A stretch of DNA of 6,141 nucleotides, taken from Candidatus Baldrarchaeum yapensis. Lineage in GTDB: Archaea; Asgardarchaeota; Baldrarchaeia; Baldrarchaeales; Baldrarchaeaceae. The position numbers and the translations under genes were made by a program. This document shows positions 1 through 6,141 of the stretch, in pieces. The notes beneath the pieces were generated by a model. It had not been told where the DNA came from. It was given only the letters and a program-made list of their open reading frames with translations, and made no database searches. Location: contig JAEOSH010000077.1 in assembly GCA_016840465.1 (NCBI GenBank), positions 1 through 6,141 on the forward strand, in the 5' to 3' direction. Positions within the stretch are counted from its first letter, which is position 1; each line of letters begins with the position of its first letter.

Positions 1-15
1 CCTCACGTGCGTCCG
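1..15 (+). repeat. Direct terminal repeat, left copy (CCTCACGTGCGTCCG)
   Basis: Nucleotides 1-15 are identical to 6127-6141. Confidence 0.97.
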
Positions 16-100
16 CCCACGCCTGATCGGGACCGCCCGGTCATCAGCACGGGCACCACGATCGATGTTCCCAGCCGGGTTTATAAAAGTTGGGGTTTCC
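1..100 (-). mobile_element. Element E3, promoter-proximal part (continues across the junction into 6126->5979)
   Basis: GC-rich, non-coding and hairpin-rich (CTGAT/ATCAG and GACC/GGTC on the - strand). TATA box CTTTTATAAA at 89->80. Contiguous through the 15-nt overlap with 6126->5979, which has the family right end. The outer boundary is uncertain: CC at 99-100 or GG at 106-107. Confidence 0.5.
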
Positions 101-107
101 ATGATGG

Positions 108-368
108 TTGAAAGTATCGGCAATATTCATCCTAGTGAATAGTCGATGTTGGTGAGGTTGAGCGATAGCCGAGTTCATAGCCAGTGTGGATGACAGAATT
201 CCACTCCACATAATAGGGTATATGCCCGTACCAGGTATGCCTTGGAGGAGACCAACAGTTGAGGAGATGCGGAGGGCAGCGCTTCGCGCGAAAAGGCATC
301 TAAGGAGTGTTTCGTGGTCACTACCGTCGATAGAGGAGATATCGTATCTGAGCATCAGGTTGCTTTAA
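108..368 (+). pseudogene. Radical SAM protein (PFL-activase-like), C-terminal fragment, frameshifted
   Basis: Reads LKVSAIFI, +1 shift near 132-138, IVDVGEVER, -1 shift near 166, then AEFIASVDDRIPLHIIGYMPVPGMPWRRPTVEEMRRAALRAKRHLRSV to TAA at 366-368. The IA-F-ASVD-IP-HI and PT-EE-A-AK pattern resembles C-termini of PFL-activase-like radical SAM proteins. No usable start of its own. Confidence 0.8.
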
Positions 369-390
369 TAAAAAGGAAGTTTTTGTTTTA
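369..390. terminator. Putative bidirectional oligo-T terminator between convergent genes
   Basis: A5 run at 370-374 (T-run on -) and TTTTTGTTTT at 380-389 (on +), between the radical SAM stop (368) and the dfx stop (405). Confidence 0.4.
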
Positions 391-404
391 ACGTTCGGTA
401 GCGG

Positions 405-788
405 CTATTTTGACATCCACAATCCGTGGACGTTGCAGTATGCTCTAGCTTTGATATTATCAATCCCGGTTTTTACTTCAAAAGCCGCCTTCGGCTTGTC
501 TCCAAGGCTCAAAAACTTTCTGTAGACACCGTTGTTCGTTATCAGTTCTATCCATTCGATATGGTGCGCCTCGTTCATTGGATGCTCTACTGAACCAACC
601 CTTACGAGGATTCCCTCGTCCGTTGTTTCGATTATGGGCACGTGCTTCTCTCTGCCCTCATCCATCGTCCTTTCCTCTATTAGTTCCATGGGCTGTCCAC
701 AACAGACAAGCTTCCCCTTCCCAGGGTGTAGCACCTCGACAATATTCCCGCAGACGTTACATTTATAGATCTGCATCTCCTCGGTCAT
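405..788 (-). CDS. dfx: Desulfoferrodoxin (two-iron superoxide reductase)
   Basis: N-terminal centre I YKCNVCGN...LVCCGQPM. Centre II ligands in EKHVP, HPM, HHIEWI and YCNVHGLW. 127 aa, ATG start, 16 nt downstream of the rubrerythrin stop. Confidence 0.96.
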   Translation of the reverse strand: MTEEMQIYKCNVCGNIVEVLHPGKGKLVCCGQPMELIEERTMDEGREKHVPIIETTDEGILVRVGSVEHPMNEAHHIEWIELITNNGVYRKFLSLGDKPKAAFEVKTGIDNIKARAYCNVHGLWMSK

Positions 789-804
789 GATCTCATCTCA
801 CTTT

Positions 805-1389
805 TTAATATTCCTCACAGAGAGGTTTGAAATACGCGCGAGAATGACCGCAGGAGGGGCATTCTTCCGGCGGCTCCTCCCCGTAGTGCACGTATCCGCA
901 CTCCATACATACCCACCATATCTTTTTCTTCTTCCTAAATATCGACCCCGCTTCCAACTCCTTCAATATCTTTCTGAATCTCTGCTCATGGTGTTCCTCG
1001 GCCCTGGCAATGGCCCTCAGCCTGTTTGCAACTTCTATAAGACCCTCACTTTCAGCAACATCGGCAAACTCGGGATACATTTTTGTGTGCTCGTAGTTTT
1101 CTCCTATTATTGCCGCCTTCAGGTTCTCGACCGTGCTTCCCAATACTATAGGGGCGCCGACCTCTACTTTTACTTCGTCGGGCGCGTTATTCGTCCTTCT
1201 CCTAATCTCATTGATAAGCTTAAAAAGGGTGCTTGCGTGCTCTCTTTCGTTTTCGGCGGTGATCTCAAAAACCTCTGCTATTTGCTCATACCCCTCCTTC
1301 CTAGCGACTTTTGCGTAGAACAAATAGCGATTTGCTGCCTGGGATTCGCCAACGAACGCCTTAACGAGATTATGGAGCGTTTTCTGCAA
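805..1389 (-). CDS. rbr: Rubrerythrin
   Basis: Di-iron helix-bundle motifs AFVGESQAANRY, ENEREHA, GENYE and AEEHH. C-terminal rubredoxin-like CMECG...CPSCG. TTG start preceded by AGGAGGAGGAATGAGGT. Confidence 0.96.
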   Translation of the reverse strand: MQKTLHNLVKAFVGESQAANRYLFYAKVARKEGYEQIAEVFEITAENEREHASTLFKLINEIRRRTNNAPDEVKVEVGAPIVLGSTVENLKAAIIGENYEHTKMYPEFADVAESEGLIEVANRLRAIARAEEHHEQRFRKILKELEAGSIFRKKKKIWWVCMECGYVHYGEEPPEECPSCGHSRAYFKPLCEEY

Positions 1390-1427
1390 ACCTCATTCCT
1401 CCTCCTAAAACATAGGGTTTTCGTTGC

Positions 1428-1455
1428 CTTAAACTTTCTAGTAATGGAACATTAC
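1428..1455 (-). promoter_or_regulatory. Putative BRE/TATA promoter of rbr-dfx with an adjacent palindrome
   Basis: On the - strand, AGAAAG-TTTAAG at 1439->1428, about 40 nt upstream of the rbr start. Perfect 6-3-6 inverted repeat GTAATG-GAA-CATTAC at 1441-1455. Confidence 0.5.
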
Positions 1456-1540
1456 GATGAGAAATTCGTTTGATTGTTGCAACATACTTTAACAATAAGA
1501 ACTCGGAAGCCTATGCACAAAAATTGTGTGGGAGGTGGTG

Positions 1541-2206
1541 TTATCTTCTACGTGTTCCTCTAAGCAGTCTATACATTTGAGTTCCGAATTTTATCGATTC
1601 TTCCGGAAGCAGATGGACGTCGCCTATGCCCGATGCGAGGATGTAGATCATTGCCGCTCGTTCTACAAGTTGCGTTACTAAAAACGCCTCTTCTAAATCC
1701 TTGCCACAACATAGGAGTCCGTGATTTGCGAGCAACACAGCATTTCTATCCTCTAATGCCGCGACGGCATTGTTTGCAAGTTCCTCCGTTCCGGGCATCG
1801 CGTATTCTGCAACTTTAACTTCCCCTCCGACGTGTGCGAGGAACTCGTCCACAAGTGGAGGTATGTTCTTTCTGGCCACCGCAAATGCCGATGCGAATAT
1901 CGGGTGGGTGTGTATCACCGCGCCCACGTCCTCTCTTGATCTGTAAATTGCCAAGTGCATTTTTATCTCTATTGAGGGGTTGCGTTTGCCCTCGATTCTC
2001 TTTCCGGAGAGGTCTACGACAACCAAGTCATCGGGTGTTAAATCCTCGTAATTCACTTGACTTGGGGTTACAACTATGAGGTTTGGGTCTTCTGGAACCC
2101 TTGCGCTTATATTTCCGGCCGATCCTACGACTAGTCCGGACTCTAAGATCTTCCTTCCGTACCTGACAACTTCGTTTTTTAATCCGGTGATATCCTTTCC
2201 GGACAT
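1541..2206 (-). CDS. Class II aldolase/adducin family protein (L-fuculose-1-phosphate aldolase-like)
   Basis: GSAGNISAR, VVTPS, PSIEIKMHLAIY, AVIHTHP and LLANHG, which include the Zn-binding HxH and H residues. Shine-Dalgarno GTGAGGT upstream of the ATG. Substrate cannot be assigned from sequence. Confidence 0.93.
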   Translation of the reverse strand: MSGKDITGLKNEVVRYGRKILESGLVVGSAGNISARVPEDPNLIVVTPSQVNYEDLTPDDLVVVDLSGKRIEGKRNPSIEIKMHLAIYRSREDVGAVIHTHPIFASAFAVARKNIPPLVDEFLAHVGGEVKVAEYAMPGTEELANNAVAALEDRNAVLLANHGLLCCGKDLEEAFLVTQLVERAAMIYILASGIGDVHLLPEESIKFGTQMYRLLRGTRRR

Positions 2207-2215
2207 GGGTATACC

Positions 2216-3760
2216 TCACAGGAGGGATTCTGCTTTTAAATATAGTCTTTTCCATCTAGAATAGTGGGTGGTGTAGGCATTATGGTTTTTCTCATCGGCG
2301 TGAACCTCACGTGAGACCTTTACCATCGACCTCACGGCCGATTCAAAGTCGCGGTATTCGCGGATTCCGATCATTGCACATATTGCACATCCGAGACTAC
2401 TACTCTCCGTCACCTTGGGAATCTTCACACTAACTCCGAGCACATCGGATAATATTTGTACAAATAGTTTGTTTTTTGCCATTCCTCCGGTCACTATTGC
2501 GGCCAGTGGGGTGTATTTCGCAACTTCGCATATTGTTTCCAAGTTTGCTCTTATTGCGAATGCTATATTTTCGAGAATGGATCTTATGAAGTGACCCGCC
2601 GTTACTTGTCGAGCCCTGACAAGGACCTGTTGCGGGAAGAGAAAGACCGACGGCCTGATGGATACGAACTTTCGTGCATCCATTATTTGTGGACCGAGGG
2701 ATGAAACTAAGCCGTCGGATCCCACTGGTGCTTTTGATCCGAGTTTTTCCATGACTTCGTAAAGGACTTCATCCTTCTCTCTTATTTCGGGTGGCATTAG
2801 TGGTTTTGTGATGTTGTCCTTAAACCAGTCATAAACAAGGCCGGCGGCGCCTATGTTTGCTTCTAGTATCCATTTTCCAAGATACACGTGGCAGGTTGTC
2901 CAAATACGCATATGGGGGTCCAAAAGGGGAGAGTTTAGCACCATTTGGATGGGTGCTGTTGTCCCAGCTGCTATTCCCAGATCTTTATCGGCAATTACAC
3001 CCGCCCCGAGCATTGCACATTGGGTGTCTGCTCCTCCCACAATTACCTCGGTATTGTTACTTAATCCCAATTTGCTTGCCACCTCGCCTGTTATTGTTCC
3101 TATGGCCGTGCCTGGCTTTTCTATTTCCGGTAAAAGATACATTGGCAGACCAAGAGCTTCACATATTTCCTCGGACCATTCAAGTTTGTGAATATCGAGA
3201 AGCATTGTTTCGGCTGCGTTTGAGGGTTCTGAGACAATCTTACTCGATAATCTGTAAGTTACCCAGTCATTGATCGACAAAACCTTCCATATTTTGCTGA
3301 AGACCTCCGGGTTGTACCTTTTGAACCACAGAAGTCTGGGAAGCGCGAATAGAACTGGTGGCCAGTGTCCTGTTATTTCGAATATCCTATGGCCCATGGC
3401 TTTTTCTATTTCCGCCTGCACGAGAACCCCGCGTCCATCGGTGTTAGGTCCCGCGTACAGTTCTTTCCCCTCTTTGCTTATGAAAACGTAACTGTATCTC
3501 ATTCCAGTTACTGCGATCGCTCTTATTGCAGAACTGGGAACTCCGCTTCTGTCTATCGTTTTTCTAGCGGTTAAAACTATCTTATTCCAGAAGTCCTTTG
3601 GGTTGAACTCCACGGCATACGGCCTTGTGGGATCGTAGATATACTCCCATTTTGTGCGTTCTAAGGAGAGCATGTTCCCGTAGGAGTCAAAAATCGCGCA
3701 TCTTACCCCGCTAGTACCCGCGTCTATTGTGAGAACGTAAGGCTCCGGCATTGACATCAC
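2216..3760 (-). CDS. FGGY-family carbohydrate kinase, LsrK (autoinducer-2 kinase)-like
   Basis: IDAGTSG phosphate loop, GGADTQ, AGTT and GGMAKN motifs. LsrK-like features are GMR and PNTDGR (in place of the usual WxDxR), EPSNA and P..DPHM. The likely start is ATG 3757, overlapping the upstream stop as TGATG; GTG 3760 and ATG 3751 are alternatives. Confidence 0.9.
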   Translation of the reverse strand: MMSMPEPYVLTIDAGTSGVRCAIFDSYGNMLSLERTKWEYIYDPTRPYAVEFNPKDFWNKIVLTARKTIDRSGVPSSAIRAIAVTGMRYSYVFISKEGKELYAGPNTDGRGVLVQAEIEKAMGHRIFEITGHWPPVLFALPRLLWFKRYNPEVFSKIWKVLSINDWVTYRLSSKIVSEPSNAAETMLLDIHKLEWSEEICEALGLPMYLLPEIEKPGTAIGTITGEVASKLGLSNNTEVIVGGADTQCAMLGAGVIADKDLGIAAGTTAPIQMVLNSPLLDPHMRIWTTCHVYLGKWILEANIGAAGLVYDWFKDNITKPLMPPEIREKDEVLYEVMEKLGSKAPVGSDGLVSSLGPQIMDARKFVSIRPSVFLFPQQVLVRARQVTAGHFIRSILENIAFAIRANLETICEVAKYTPLAAIVTGGMAKNKLFVQILSDVLGVSVKIPKVTESSSLGCAICAMIGIREYRDFESAVRSMVKVSREVHADEKNHNAYTTHYSRWKRLYLKAESLL

Positions 3761-4773
3761 GCTTGTCCCTTTTCTAATACTTCAGGATTGACAACGAACT
3801 TGGGGCGTTCACCTCTGATAAAGCGCTCAATGTCCTCCGCTAGGATCTTTGCCTGTCTATCTATTACCTCGTGTGTTGATCCGCCTATGTGCGGCGTTAC
3901 TATCACGTTATCGAATTCAAGCAACGGGTTTCTCGAATCTATTGGTTCCCTTGCCGAGACGTCTACCGCGGCGCCCGCAATCCATCCTTCTCTGAGGGCT
4001 TTTATCAAGGCGTCCTCCTTGACAACCGCCCCACTAGCCATGTTGATGAAGTACGCCGTTCTCTTCATTCTCCTGAATTGTTCCTCCTTGAACATGTAAA
4101 GGGTTTCGGGCGTTACAGCGCAGTGAACCGTTACTATATCGGATTCGCGCAAGAGGGTTTCGAAATCCACCTTTTTAGCACCGACTTCGCGCAGTCTCTC
4201 ATCGCCATCTCCCACATATGGGTCGTAGACGAGAATTCTTGTTCCAAATGGCACCAATCTCTTTGCAACGCGGTATCCTATTCTTCCAAAGCCCACGATT
4301 CCCACGGTTTTTCCTCCCAGTTCGAATCCTCTCAGCCTTTCGTAGGTATCGAGGAAGTCGTCAAATCCCCCGACCACGACTTTTTCCACGCGGAGCATTC
4401 TATCGGCGAGGCATATTTTACGTAGGAGCGCTATTATGAGCCCTATTGTGAGATCCGCGACGGCATCGGCATTTCTCCCGGGAGTGTAAAAGACGGGAAC
4501 CCCTTTTTTCGTCGCGGCGTCTACTGCGACGTTTCGGACCTCATTTCTACATACTCCCACGAACTTCAGATCGCAAGACTCGAATACCCGCTTCCCCACG
4601 AAGTCTACCTCTACTATTATCGCGTCGAAATTCTCCTCCCGTATTCGCCTGATGAAGTCGTTATCTGATAGAACCCTTCTCGTCTTGAGCCACGGTTCAT
4701 ACACTATCTCCATGTACTTTTCGAGAATCCGCATTCCCTCTTTCCCGAAAGCTGCGGTTATGAGCACCCGCAA
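3757..4773 (-). CDS. D-isomer-specific 2-hydroxyacid dehydrogenase family (SerA-like), NAD-dependent
   Basis: TPGRNADAVADL, GKTVGIVGFGRIG Rossmann motif, YDPY (acidic residue favouring NAD), DV..REP and TPHIGG. TTG start. The usual NxARG motif reads NMASG. Confidence 0.93.
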   Translation of the reverse strand: MRVLITAAFGKEGMRILEKYMEIVYEPWLKTRRVLSDNDFIRRIREENFDAIIVEVDFVGKRVFESCDLKFVGVCRNEVRNVAVDAATKKGVPVFYTPGRNADAVADLTIGLIIALLRKICLADRMLRVEKVVVGGFDDFLDTYERLRGFELGGKTVGIVGFGRIGYRVAKRLVPFGTRILVYDPYVGDGDERLREVGAKKVDFETLLRESDIVTVHCAVTPETLYMFKEEQFRRMKRTAYFINMASGAVVKEDALIKALREGWIAGAAVDVSAREPIDSRNPLLEFDNVIVTPHIGGSTHEVIDRQAKILAEDIERFIRGERPKFVVNPEVLEKGQA

Positions 4774-4805
4774 TTTTATCCCTTTGCATAGTTACGGCGA
4801 AGGAC

Positions 4806-4818
4806 TTTTATTATTTTC
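4806..4818 (-). promoter_or_regulatory. Putative BRE/TATA of the dehydrogenase-kinase-aldolase operon
   Basis: On the - strand, GAAAA-TAATAAAA about 33-45 nt upstream of the TTG at 4773. Confidence 0.4.
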
Positions 4819-4834
4819 ATGTCACTCGGACGTT

Positions 4835-5018
4835 CCGTTCTGACTCTCCGCCACTTTTGTTGCAATTGACGCGTGTGTGGCGGAGAGCCTTCCCGTCTCG
4901 GGGTCCATCGACGGGCTTTCGCGGGGAGCGGTACTCCGCGCGTCCATCTGCCCCTCGCTCCGCCCTTTCGGGCTTCCCTTCCTCTCACCGTCCCTCCCAC
5001 ATCCCGGGCGGAGCCCGC
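4835..5018 (-). ncRNA. Putative structured RNA of E1 (omega-RNA-like scaffold)
   Basis: AAAA-CC-CTTATAAA with the TATA box at 5044->5037, about 25 nt before the GC-rich start GCGGGCTCCG. Helix CGGGCT/AGCCCG. 13-bp terminal stem (4889->4877 with 4854->4842) whose one non-Watson-Crick pair is a G.U only on the - strand. Confidence 0.55.
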
Positions 5019-5102
5019 TTAACACAACAGAAGTCCTTTATAAGGGTTTTGAGGTTGTAAAGGTGCGTGAAGGCAGCAAATGCAACACTATACGTTTCCT
5101 CC
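4835..5102 (-). mobile_element. Element E1: 264-bp non-autonomous, GG-bounded, IS607-like mini-element
   Basis: Left end 5098->5059 is 37/40 identical to E2 5709-5748. Terminal 30 nt (4864->4835) are 28/30 identical to E2 5929-5958. Homology to E2 stops at the right-end GG, and GGGG precedes the left end in both. No credible ORF. The family assignment is inference. Confidence 0.75.
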
Positions 5103-5259
5103 CCGAGTTTCTCGAGGCGGAAGGAAAGTTATTAAATTATGGGTAACATCCTTTCCCTGAAAAGTAATACATGATAGGCGGTCATGTGACCATTTGCCGA
5201 GAAACAAATCGCAAGGACACAACTCACATCGATGCGTAGGGGGCGTTAAGGTGGGCGTG

Positions 5260-5706
5260 ATGAAGTGGTGGCGGTGCAGAAATCCATTTTTTAGAAAGGT
5301 AACGTATGCGGAACGGTCAGGCACGATGTACGTTTACAGTTTTGGTTGCAACTGGGCGTGCCTAGTGTGTACTTAATAGGATAAAGGATCCATGTGAGGA
5401 GGACGGTTGCAGGAGGATTGAGGAACGAAGGATGGAGTACTATCGGAGTGGACTGATAAAAACTGTGAGGTTTCTTGGCGGGGAGCCCCTAATAAATCCC
5501 CAGTTGCCGGCCATAGCAAAGTTTGCGGCCGATTTGGGGGGTAAGGGTGGAAATTGGGCATACAAACCTTTCCGTGATGCCTCCCGATGTCGCCGAAAGT
5601 GCTGTTGTTAGCATAAAGGCCATTGATGAGGCATACATAGGAAGTATACTGGAAACTTTTCCAATAGGAATGTGCTCAGGAACTTTGAGAAGTACCACCA
5701 GAGGGG
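5260..5706 (+). pseudogene. Radical SAM protein (PFL-activase-like), N-terminal fragment, frameshifted and interrupted by E2
   Basis: CxxxCxxC (GCNWACLVC, Cys codons at 5347, 5359 and 5368). Shift near 5371, then VRFLGGEPL (5477-5488 = GGEP). +1 G in the G6 run at 5536-5541, then VEIGHTN...SIKAIDE. Shift near 5632, then IHRKYTG...NVLRNFEKYHQRG. Start codon uncertain. Confidence 0.88.
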
Positions 5707-5958
5707 CAGAAACGTATAGTGTTGCATTTGTTGCCCTCATGCACCTTTGATGCACCGTAAAGCAATGAGGTGTGCTGATGCCGTAACTTTATATTTGTTT
5801 TCTCCACAAAGAAGATTTGGTGGGCTCCGATTTCCGAGAGCCCGCGGGCGATGAAGGTCCGGTGACGTACCGGAGAACCCGCGGTGAGGGGGTCGGAGCG
5901 TCGCCGCGATGAAGGTCTCCGCCACGAATGCAACAAAAGTGGCGGAGAACCAGAACGG
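5705..5958 (+). mobile_element. Element E2: 250-bp non-autonomous, GG-bounded, IS607-like mini-element inserted in the radical SAM gene
   Basis: GG at 5705-5706 and 5957-5958. Removing 5707-5958 gives CAG AGG GGT ATG CGG (QRGMR), in frame. Both ends are homologous to E1. Confidence 0.8.
5819..5958 (+). ncRNA. Putative structured RNA of E2 (omega-RNA-like scaffold)
   Basis: TTTATAT at 5788-5794, about 27 nt before GGTGGGCTCCG. Hairpins GGGCTC/GAGCCC, TCCGGT/ACCGGA and TCTCCGCCAC/GTGGCGGAGA (5916-5925 with 5939-5948), followed by ACCAGAACGG. Confidence 0.55.
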
Positions 5959-5978
5959 TATGCGGCTTAAGACAAACA

Positions 5979-6141
5979 CCGTTCTGGTTCCCAGGCTCGT
6001 GGTTGCCCGTGCGTTATCTTTTGGAAACTAAGGGTATTTTGGGAACCCGCACGGGCTTCCCCCTCGGCCGCTTCATCCCTCTCGGCGGCCCATCGGGGGC
6101 CACATCGACGAGCACCACGGAGCCCGCCTCACGTGCGTCCG
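5979..6141 (-). mobile_element. Element E3, right-end part, tail-to-tail with E2
   Basis: 5979-5990 is the exact reverse complement of E2 5947-5958 (GAACCAGAACGG). Terminal stem GGTTCCCA/TGGGAACC (6047->6040 with 5993->5986). Four co-linear sequence blocks are shared with E1. Confidence 0.65.
6127..6141 (+). repeat. Direct terminal repeat, right copy
   Basis: Identical to nucleotides 1-15. Confidence 0.97.

Follow-up and report, generated by a model that had tools for sequence, protein, structure and literature searches.

Gene content of the contig

The DNA analysed here (the window, 6,141 nt) corresponds to one entire contig (C82) of the Candidatus Baldrarchaeum yapensis genome. Searches with Pfam and NCBIfam models identified, all on the minus strand, genes for a desulfoferrodoxin (dfx, a 2Fe superoxide reductase of 127 aa at 405..788; PF06397 plus PF01880, and TIGR00320 with 196 bits), a rubrerythrin (rbr, 194 aa, 805..1389; NF045767, 240 bits), a class II aldolase/epimerase (221 aa, 1541..2206), an FGGY-family sugar kinase (514 aa, 2216..3760) and a D-isomer-specific 2-hydroxyacid dehydrogenase (338 aa, 3757..4773). 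The aldolase/epimerase resembles fuculose-phosphate aldolase or ribulose-5-phosphate epimerase, scoring under the equivalog cut-offs, and the FGGY kinase matched only distant bacterial relatives in a search of the contig collection. Beyond these genes, the same Pfam and NCBIfam searches detected no replication initiator or maintenance gene, and an earlier note on this DNA was right that the whole window lacks Rep, integrase and transposase genes. That note had also named positions 369-404 and 1474-1540 as candidate branches of the assembly graph; neither of these intergenic stretches has another copy in the genome.

IS607-type mini-elements E1 and E2

The components of IS607-family transposons are the serine recombinase TnpA, TnpB and a guide RNA. 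These transposons are reported to insert at GG without target duplication and to give rise to circular excision products, short end segments being sufficient for excision (Chen et al. 2018, PMC6188088; bioRxiv 10.1101/2023.11.20.567912). Two elements in the window resemble this family, namely E1 (4835..5104, minus strand, 270 nt) and E2 (5703..5958, plus strand, 256 nt), which is inverted relative to E1. Both had been noted previously, at lengths (264 and 250 nt) that are corrected here. The genome also contains a tnpA(serine)-tnpB element (C96:26176-28026) whose ends are matched by those of E1: bases 1-115 of E1 show an 83% match to C96:27912-28026, the last ~50 nt show an 80% match to C96:26176-26226, and the ORFs between these E1-like ends are hit by two models, that of the IS607 transposase at 237 bits and that of TnpB at 162 bits. 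E2 is a single-copy, diverged member of the E1 family, inserted at a GG of the radical SAM gene described below, and shares this end homology.

Read in the TnpB orientation, copies of the E1 family start with GG, end with GG and lie between unrelated flanks. By the GG-core rule for IS607 ends (PMC6188088), E1 and E2 have a GG core at both ends, and neither shows terminal inverted repeats or a target duplication. Judging from these sequence features, both elements can be assigned to gene-less mini-elements of the IS607/TnpB type, differing from the gene-bearing transposons of the family in that no genes are carried. Excision of E2 with retention of one GG would restore the radical SAM reading frame, as worked out partly by hand. 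The fold of the putative guide-RNA scaffold includes a terminal hairpin, with a z score of only -1.8. Neither an Rfam search nor a tRNA scan returned a match explaining the GC-rich elements.

Element E3 and the interrupted radical SAM gene

A third element, E3, is cut by the window edges, as had been pointed out before. In plus-strand view, its left part (5999..6141, minus strand) bears a terminal hairpin and represents the putative right-end side, and its right part (1..144, minus strand), whose 144 nt are identical to the end of contig C79, bears a TATA-like box and would be the left-end side. Joining the two (5999-6141 followed by 16-143/144) restores a complete element of ~271 nt, not 244 nt as first estimated; bases 108-144, formerly given to the C-half of the radical SAM gene, belong to E3. 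Base 144 is C in the window, as in other E3 copies, and T at this locus in the independent assemblies L019 and L020. The layout of E3 is like that of the E1 family (TATA-like box, GC-rich body and terminal hairpin). In contrast to IS607-family transposons, E3 is gene-less and has GT, not GG, at its borders (its insertion is precise, with GT on either side); no gene-bearing parent of it was detected in the genome. The search for such a parent covered the genome's six TnpB loci and all fetched loci, and its sole product was a degenerate E3-like end on C6. E3 occupies this site in L020, a 73-kb SPAdes contig, and is missing from the same site in one 30-kb contig (L018) and one 5-kb Logan contig. 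Natural strains thus differ in whether they carry the element here, so it has moved recently.

E2 and E3 interrupt a radical SAM gene (PF04055-type, 245-aa form) on the plus strand. When the 245-aa ORF of a same-order relative (genome G002, L013:9632-10369) was used as reference, the N-half (5260-5707) and the C-half (165-368), which share a strand, mapped to this one ORF in the right order, with only 21 codons left unmatched. With E2 and E3 taken out, these codons are supplied by 5959-5998 and 145-164, at 84% identity to the relative. The gene is represented in the window by a 5' part (5251..5702), a middle piece between E2 and E3 (5959..5998, codons ~158-171) and a 3' part (145..368, codons ~172-245 of the relative's gene). 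No second N-half or C-half, which could have been a partner for C8 or C79, exists elsewhere in the genome, and the earlier proposal that the halves join across the contig ends is upheld: they are parts of one single-copy gene. The 5' part keeps CxxxCxxC and GGEPL, the former motif no longer lying in an intact frame, and this part contains several frameshifts and stops. Because of these and of the two element insertions, the gene is a pseudogene. Positions 5979-5998 were also considered as the beginning of a further E1-type element interrupted by E3; this candidate was rejected, the stretch being radical SAM coding sequence.

Contig ends and terminal overlap

Bases 1-15 of the window are an exact copy of 6127-6141, in agreement with the original observation, and among the 100 contigs of the genome C82 alone has such a terminal self-overlap. 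The overlap (1..15, no strand) is a stretch internal to the multi-copy element E3, and both it and the 6126-to-1 joint consist of E3 sequence that also occurs on C96, C8 and C74. Contig C79 ends inside E3 exactly at window base 1, and C55 and C88 end one or two bases beyond the equivalent of window 6141, such that all three ends fall in one ~17-nt stretch, ~143-145 nt into the element. Since contigs reach ~143-145 nt into E3, the 15-nt overlap reflects only that reach; its length equals twice the contig reach (~143-144 nt) minus the length of E3. In public-run Logan contigs, the 6126-to-1 joint is found only in short contigs, whose depth exceeds that of the window's unique contig by a factor of 2.2-4.3; the joint therefore represents generic E3 sequence.

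The proposed adjacency of the window's end and start is genuine, as L020 crosses E3 at this point with 100% identity over 271 nt. Because the segment does run uninterrupted through E3, the contig ends overlap and mimic closure. Closure by locus-specific sequence, as expected of an extrachromosomal circular replicon, was not found; the loop closes only through an E1 copy that proved to be a hybrid.

Linear arrangement in independent assemblies

In independent assemblies the locus has the order flank U, an E1 copy (E1b), radical SAM N-half, E2, E3 where present, C-half, dfx, rbr, aldolase, FGGY kinase, dehydrogenase, another E1 copy (E1a) and flank V. In L018, assembled with MEGAHIT, U is followed by E1b, window 5105-6000, window 142-4834, E1a and V, and L020 reads U, E1b, window 5105-6141 and window 1-4949. 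The joint of dehydrogenase, E1a and V is seen in five assemblies (L018, L019, L021, L035 and L036), and that of U, E1b and N-half in two (L018 and L020). The chromosomal unit is a 5.86-kb unique segment between two direct copies of the 270-nt IS607-type mini-element, with E1b adjoining the radical SAM N-half and E1a adjoining the dehydrogenase gene. On the outer sides E1b continues into U and E1a into V, which is a chromosomal continuation that a circular replicon would lack. The earlier suggestion of a unit between direct copies of a mini-element thus holds in that E1a and E1b flank the locus, but the unit is linear in the chromosome.

Measured against another contig ending in an E1 copy, the window's unique parts were single-copy-like in depth in four runs (for example, 23.4 versus 25.6 in run X4), these depths being one figure per Logan contig and not read depth. 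Logan contigs break at repeat borders, so a linkage from the dehydrogenase gene to the N-half via one E1 is not visible in them.

A hybrid E1 and other probable mis-joins

The E1 of the window combines the two chromosomal copies. Seven diagnostic sites within 4844-4951 are E1a-type (dehydrogenase side), six within 5067-5100 are E1b-type (radical SAM side), and one base (T at 5058) is private to the window. This pattern points to a false join inside E1, within 4952-5066. In the strain assembled here, E1a and E1b share ~115 nt without any distinguishing base, and the assembler would therefore have crossed from one to the other. The weak point, previously sought at the end-to-start junction, was misplaced: the join across E3 is genuine and the error is internal, in E1. 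The E1a of L019 has an E1b-like centre.

Other contigs of the genome also disagree with independent assemblies at E1 copies. Flank U lies on C69 (100% identity), which links it to another flank, X (also on C39, 25 nt), whereas L018 and L020 link U to E1b and the N-half. Flank V lies on C28 (99.8% identity), which joins it to flank Y, whereas three independent assemblies link Y to the sequence of C80, a contig that begins inside an E1 copy. One of these flank-contig disagreements was checked directly and one by inference. C28 and the window contig were probably mis-joined at E1 copies, and C69 was probably mis-joined as well. Of 200 contig ends, 12 lie in E1 or E3 sequence, which covers 0.26% of the genome. 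E1-family elements thus both break and mis-join this assembly, and since several copies are affected, gene-neighbourhood arguments across E1 elements need to be checked against other assemblies.

Origin of the apparent circle

The window very probably represents not a circular molecule but a linear chromosomal locus, its contig being rotated and collapsed at a repeat. Assembly collapse, one of the options raised in the earlier note, is the one borne out by the hybrid E1 and by the linear order in independent assemblies. The assembler would have entered E1a from the dehydrogenase gene and left by E1b into the radical SAM N-half, and assembly would then have halted on both sides inside E3, the multi-copy ~271-nt element that splits the pseudogene. 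The hybrid E1 is most likely a product of the assembler rather than of the cell.

Such a contig is similar to the pseudo-circular contigs of short-read (de Bruijn graph) assemblies, in which a unique segment lies between near-identical direct repeats, and it shares with repeat-collapse contigs of this kind a short terminal overlap, ends in a multi-copy repeat and the lack of replicon genes. Unlike the usual case, the overlap lies in E3 and the collapsed repeat is E1; because these are different repeats, the end-to-start join is correct and the error lies concealed in the contig's interior. Taken together, a short terminal overlap, a gene joining across the ends and a repeat made whole seem to argue strongly for circularity. 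A circle may nevertheless be false if a second repeat inside the contig was collapsed.

Counterpoints to a collapse are that a circle excised by homologous recombination between the two E1 copies would carry exactly such a hybrid E1, and that the strain of this genome could differ in arrangement from those of the other assemblies. A real 6.1-kb extrachromosomal circle with one hybrid E1, looped out by recombination between the direct copies, is improbable. The polarity of the hybrid is as expected for such a product (E1a-type towards the dehydrogenase gene, E1b-type towards the N-half), the segment is continuous across E3, and the E1b-like centre of the L019 E1a may indicate sequence exchange between copies. 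However, the window has no replication gene, its depth is similar to that of the organism's other contigs, and the reciprocal U-E1-V deletion joint was seen in no assembly examined. Moreover, the flanks to which U and V are joined in this genome are unrelated, a situation better explained by assembler error than by a single recombination event. The headline claim, an actual extrachromosomal circle with metabolic cargo, is unsupported, the genes being linear in the chromosome of independent assemblies. There is likewise only a small chance that in some cells the 5.86-kb block of oxidative-stress genes and a sugar operon loops out, with the hybrid E1 as the footprint of that event.

Less probable still is a chromosome truly rearranged at several E1 copies, with contigs that are correct and differ from those of other strains. 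The dispersed, homologous E1 copies could mediate rearrangements, and the private T at 5058 would be in keeping with this. Nonetheless, at least three independent exchanges would be needed, all in the last ~50-120 nt of E1, a closed 6.1-kb loop without chromosomal link would remain, and the partner contigs stop exactly where other assemblies go on. Equally remote is the possibility that the 6.1-kb unit is duplicated or amplified in tandem within the chromosome, tandem amplification being also listed in the earlier note; the joint of dehydrogenase, E1 and N-half would then be real, and a head-to-tail repeat would yield a contig seeming to close on itself. This reading is disfavoured by the single-copy-like depth of the unique parts relative to the other E1-ending contig in the four runs and by independent long contigs, which show a single copy bounded by U and V.

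Linear order of the locus in independent assemblies

The window constitutes the entire contig C82 (6141 nt) of a draft genome of 100 contigs (2.27-Mb, 46% GC, 96% complete), and its sequence is present in public metagenomic runs covering hydrothermal vents, sediment and seawater. The minus strand encodes desulfoferrodoxin (dfx), rubrerythrin (rbr), a class II aldolase/epimerase, an FGGY kinase and a 2-hydroxyacid dehydrogenase. As described in the earlier note, replication, integrase and transposase genes are absent from the window, whose gene content consists of these five metabolic genes and radical SAM remnants. The observations behind that note were accurate, but the 6126-bp extrachromosomal circle proposed from them is very probably false, an artefact of assembly. 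Behind it lies a chromosomal locus dotted with IS607-type mini-elements.

Contigs from independent assemblies place the genes linearly between two outer chromosomal flanks, U and V. In window orientation, the order is U, E1b, the 5' part of the radical SAM pseudogene (N-half), E2, (E3), its 3' part (C-half), dfx, rbr, aldolase, kinase, dehydrogenase, E1a and V, where E1, E2 and E3 denote GC-rich, gene-less mini-elements. Flank U, adjoining E1b, carries HypA, DUF362 and other genes, and flank V, adjoining E1a, carries a 146-aa ORF and a CoA ligase-like gene. Window positions 4835-5104 (E1) are matched twice in L018 and L020. The dehydrogenase-E1a-V joint occurs in five independent assemblies (L018, L019/L034, L021, L035 and L036), and the U-E1b-N-half joint in two (L018 and L020).

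A hybrid E1 and further mis-joins

The single E1 of the window is of E1a type at positions 4844, 4852, 4878, 4885, 4940, 4942 and 4951, and of E1b type at 5067, 5071, 5076, 5092, 5099 and 5100. Across the intervening stretch (4952-5066), it differs from the E1a of L019 at only two bases, 5044 and 5058. At 5044 the window shares its base with E1b and the remaining E1a forms, while the T at 5058, located within the false-join zone, is private, being absent from E1a and E1b of other assemblies and from the genome's other E1 copies. Neither base distinguishes the E1a type from the E1b type. Since 4952-5066 lacks any type-separating base, a short-read graph has two entries and two exits here. Assembly collapse, one of the options raised in the earlier note, is supported by the hybrid E1 together with the linear order in independent assemblies. 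The L019 form of E1a, compared with those of L018 and L021, has an E1b-like centre (window-equivalent 4933-5020) between E1a-type ends, reflecting either exchange between both flanking copies or a further assembly mosaic.

A circle excised through E1a-E1b recombination would carry exactly this hybrid. However, such a real loop-out circle is improbable, given that the window's contig depth is like that of another contig ending in an E1 copy, that the expected U-E1-V deletion joint occurs in no assembly examined, and that this assembly conflicts with independent ones at further E1 copies. Tandem repetition of the unit and a true strain rearrangement each have a still slimmer chance of accounting for the window.

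Within this genome, U lies on C69 and V on C28. Contig C28 (C28:4599-4872) links an unrelated flank, Y, to V; in three independent assemblies, Y leads through its own E1 copy into sequence held here on C80, which starts within an E1 copy (C80:1-244). Similarly, C69 (C69:3170-3439) links U to flank X, which is also found on C39 (C39:26-296). Other contigs of the genome appear, by comparison of assemblies, to be mis-joined at E1 copies. Contig ends fall in E1/E3 sequence (0.26% of the genome) in 12 of 200 cases.

Contig ends and the radical SAM pseudogene

The reported 15-nt exact terminal repeat is present (bases 1-15 are identical to 6127-6141), and terminal self-overlap is found in no other contig of the genome. 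Contigs ending in E3, namely C82 (both ends), C79, C55 and C88, penetrate it by ~143-145 nt; this reach from each side of an element of ~271 nt yields an overlap of ~15 nt. C79 ends in sequence identical to the window's first 144 nt, and base 144 is C in the window and other E3 copies vs T at this locus in L019 and L020, so the contig tips are generic E3 sequence. The 73-kb contig L020, from another assembly, passes straight through E3 at this locus, with 100% identity to the joined window ends over 271 nt. The two ends of the contig accordingly do adjoin in the genome, and the end-to-start join is real. The 6126-to-1 joint was seen in all four runs aligned, though within short contigs whose depth is 2.2-4.3 times that of the unique contig of the window.

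The plus-strand radical SAM remnants correspond, one after the other, to parts of a single 245-aa ORF in a relative from the same order, and neither part has a further copy elsewhere in the genome; the proposed joining of the halves through the end-to-start junction is thereby upheld, and the two remnants are parts of one gene. Because 21 seemingly absent codons are recovered at 5959-5998 plus 145-164 once E2 and E3 are removed, the gene is full-length yet dead: it is interrupted by two inserted elements and carries several frameshifts and stop codons.

Mini-elements E1, E2 and E3

E1 (270 nt) has at least 12-14 genomic copies at 74-96% identity; the copies have sharply defined ends, and their flanks are unrelated. 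Its two ends resemble those of a C96 element coding for an IS607-type serine transposase and TnpB. In TnpB orientation, E1 copies have GG at start and end, fitting the published rule for IS607, in which exchange occurs over a GG core without target duplication (PMC6188088). At the C96 element (region C96:26176-28132; L015:677-2633), the tnpB frame extends ~35 codons beyond the end of E1-right-end similarity, which apparently places its stop codon beyond the element.

E2 (5703-5958), present as a single copy inverted relative to E1, is a diverged E1-family element. Radical SAM coding sequence 18 nt downstream forms a perfect mirror of the last 12-13 nt at the right end of E2 (window 5947-5990), a match reached by none of 500 shuffles and found in none of 12 other family copies. 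The E2 tip departs from the family consensus at two bases, precisely those that make the palindrome perfect. Quasi-palindrome correction is one possible cause, and choice of a target resembling the element end is another.

E3 (5999-6141 plus 16-143/144) represents a family distinct from E1, with ~10 copies or fragments and a similar layout (TATA-like box, GC-rich body and terminal hairpin); no gene-bearing parent was found in this genome. It is indeed cut by the window edges and whole when joined, but measures ~271 nt rather than the 244 bp first estimated. The locus lacks E3 in L018 (30-kb) and in L022, a 5-kb Logan contig whose joint also occurs in run X4; in both, window base 6000 is joined directly to the counterpart of base 144-145. 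The sequence of the empty site is CTC-GT-TGATG, and in the filled site GT flanks the insert on both sides. The insertion is exact, without duplication apart from GT, and fits a 2-bp serine-recombinase exchange with a non-GG core. E3 is filled in L019 and L020 and empty in L018 and L022; this presence/absence among natural strains shows that the gene-less element has been recently mobile. Decayed relatives comprise a right-end fragment with 69% identity (C6:12662-12775), a truncated copy (C58:6341-6413) and a copy missing ~70 nt from its interior (C74:17817-18024).
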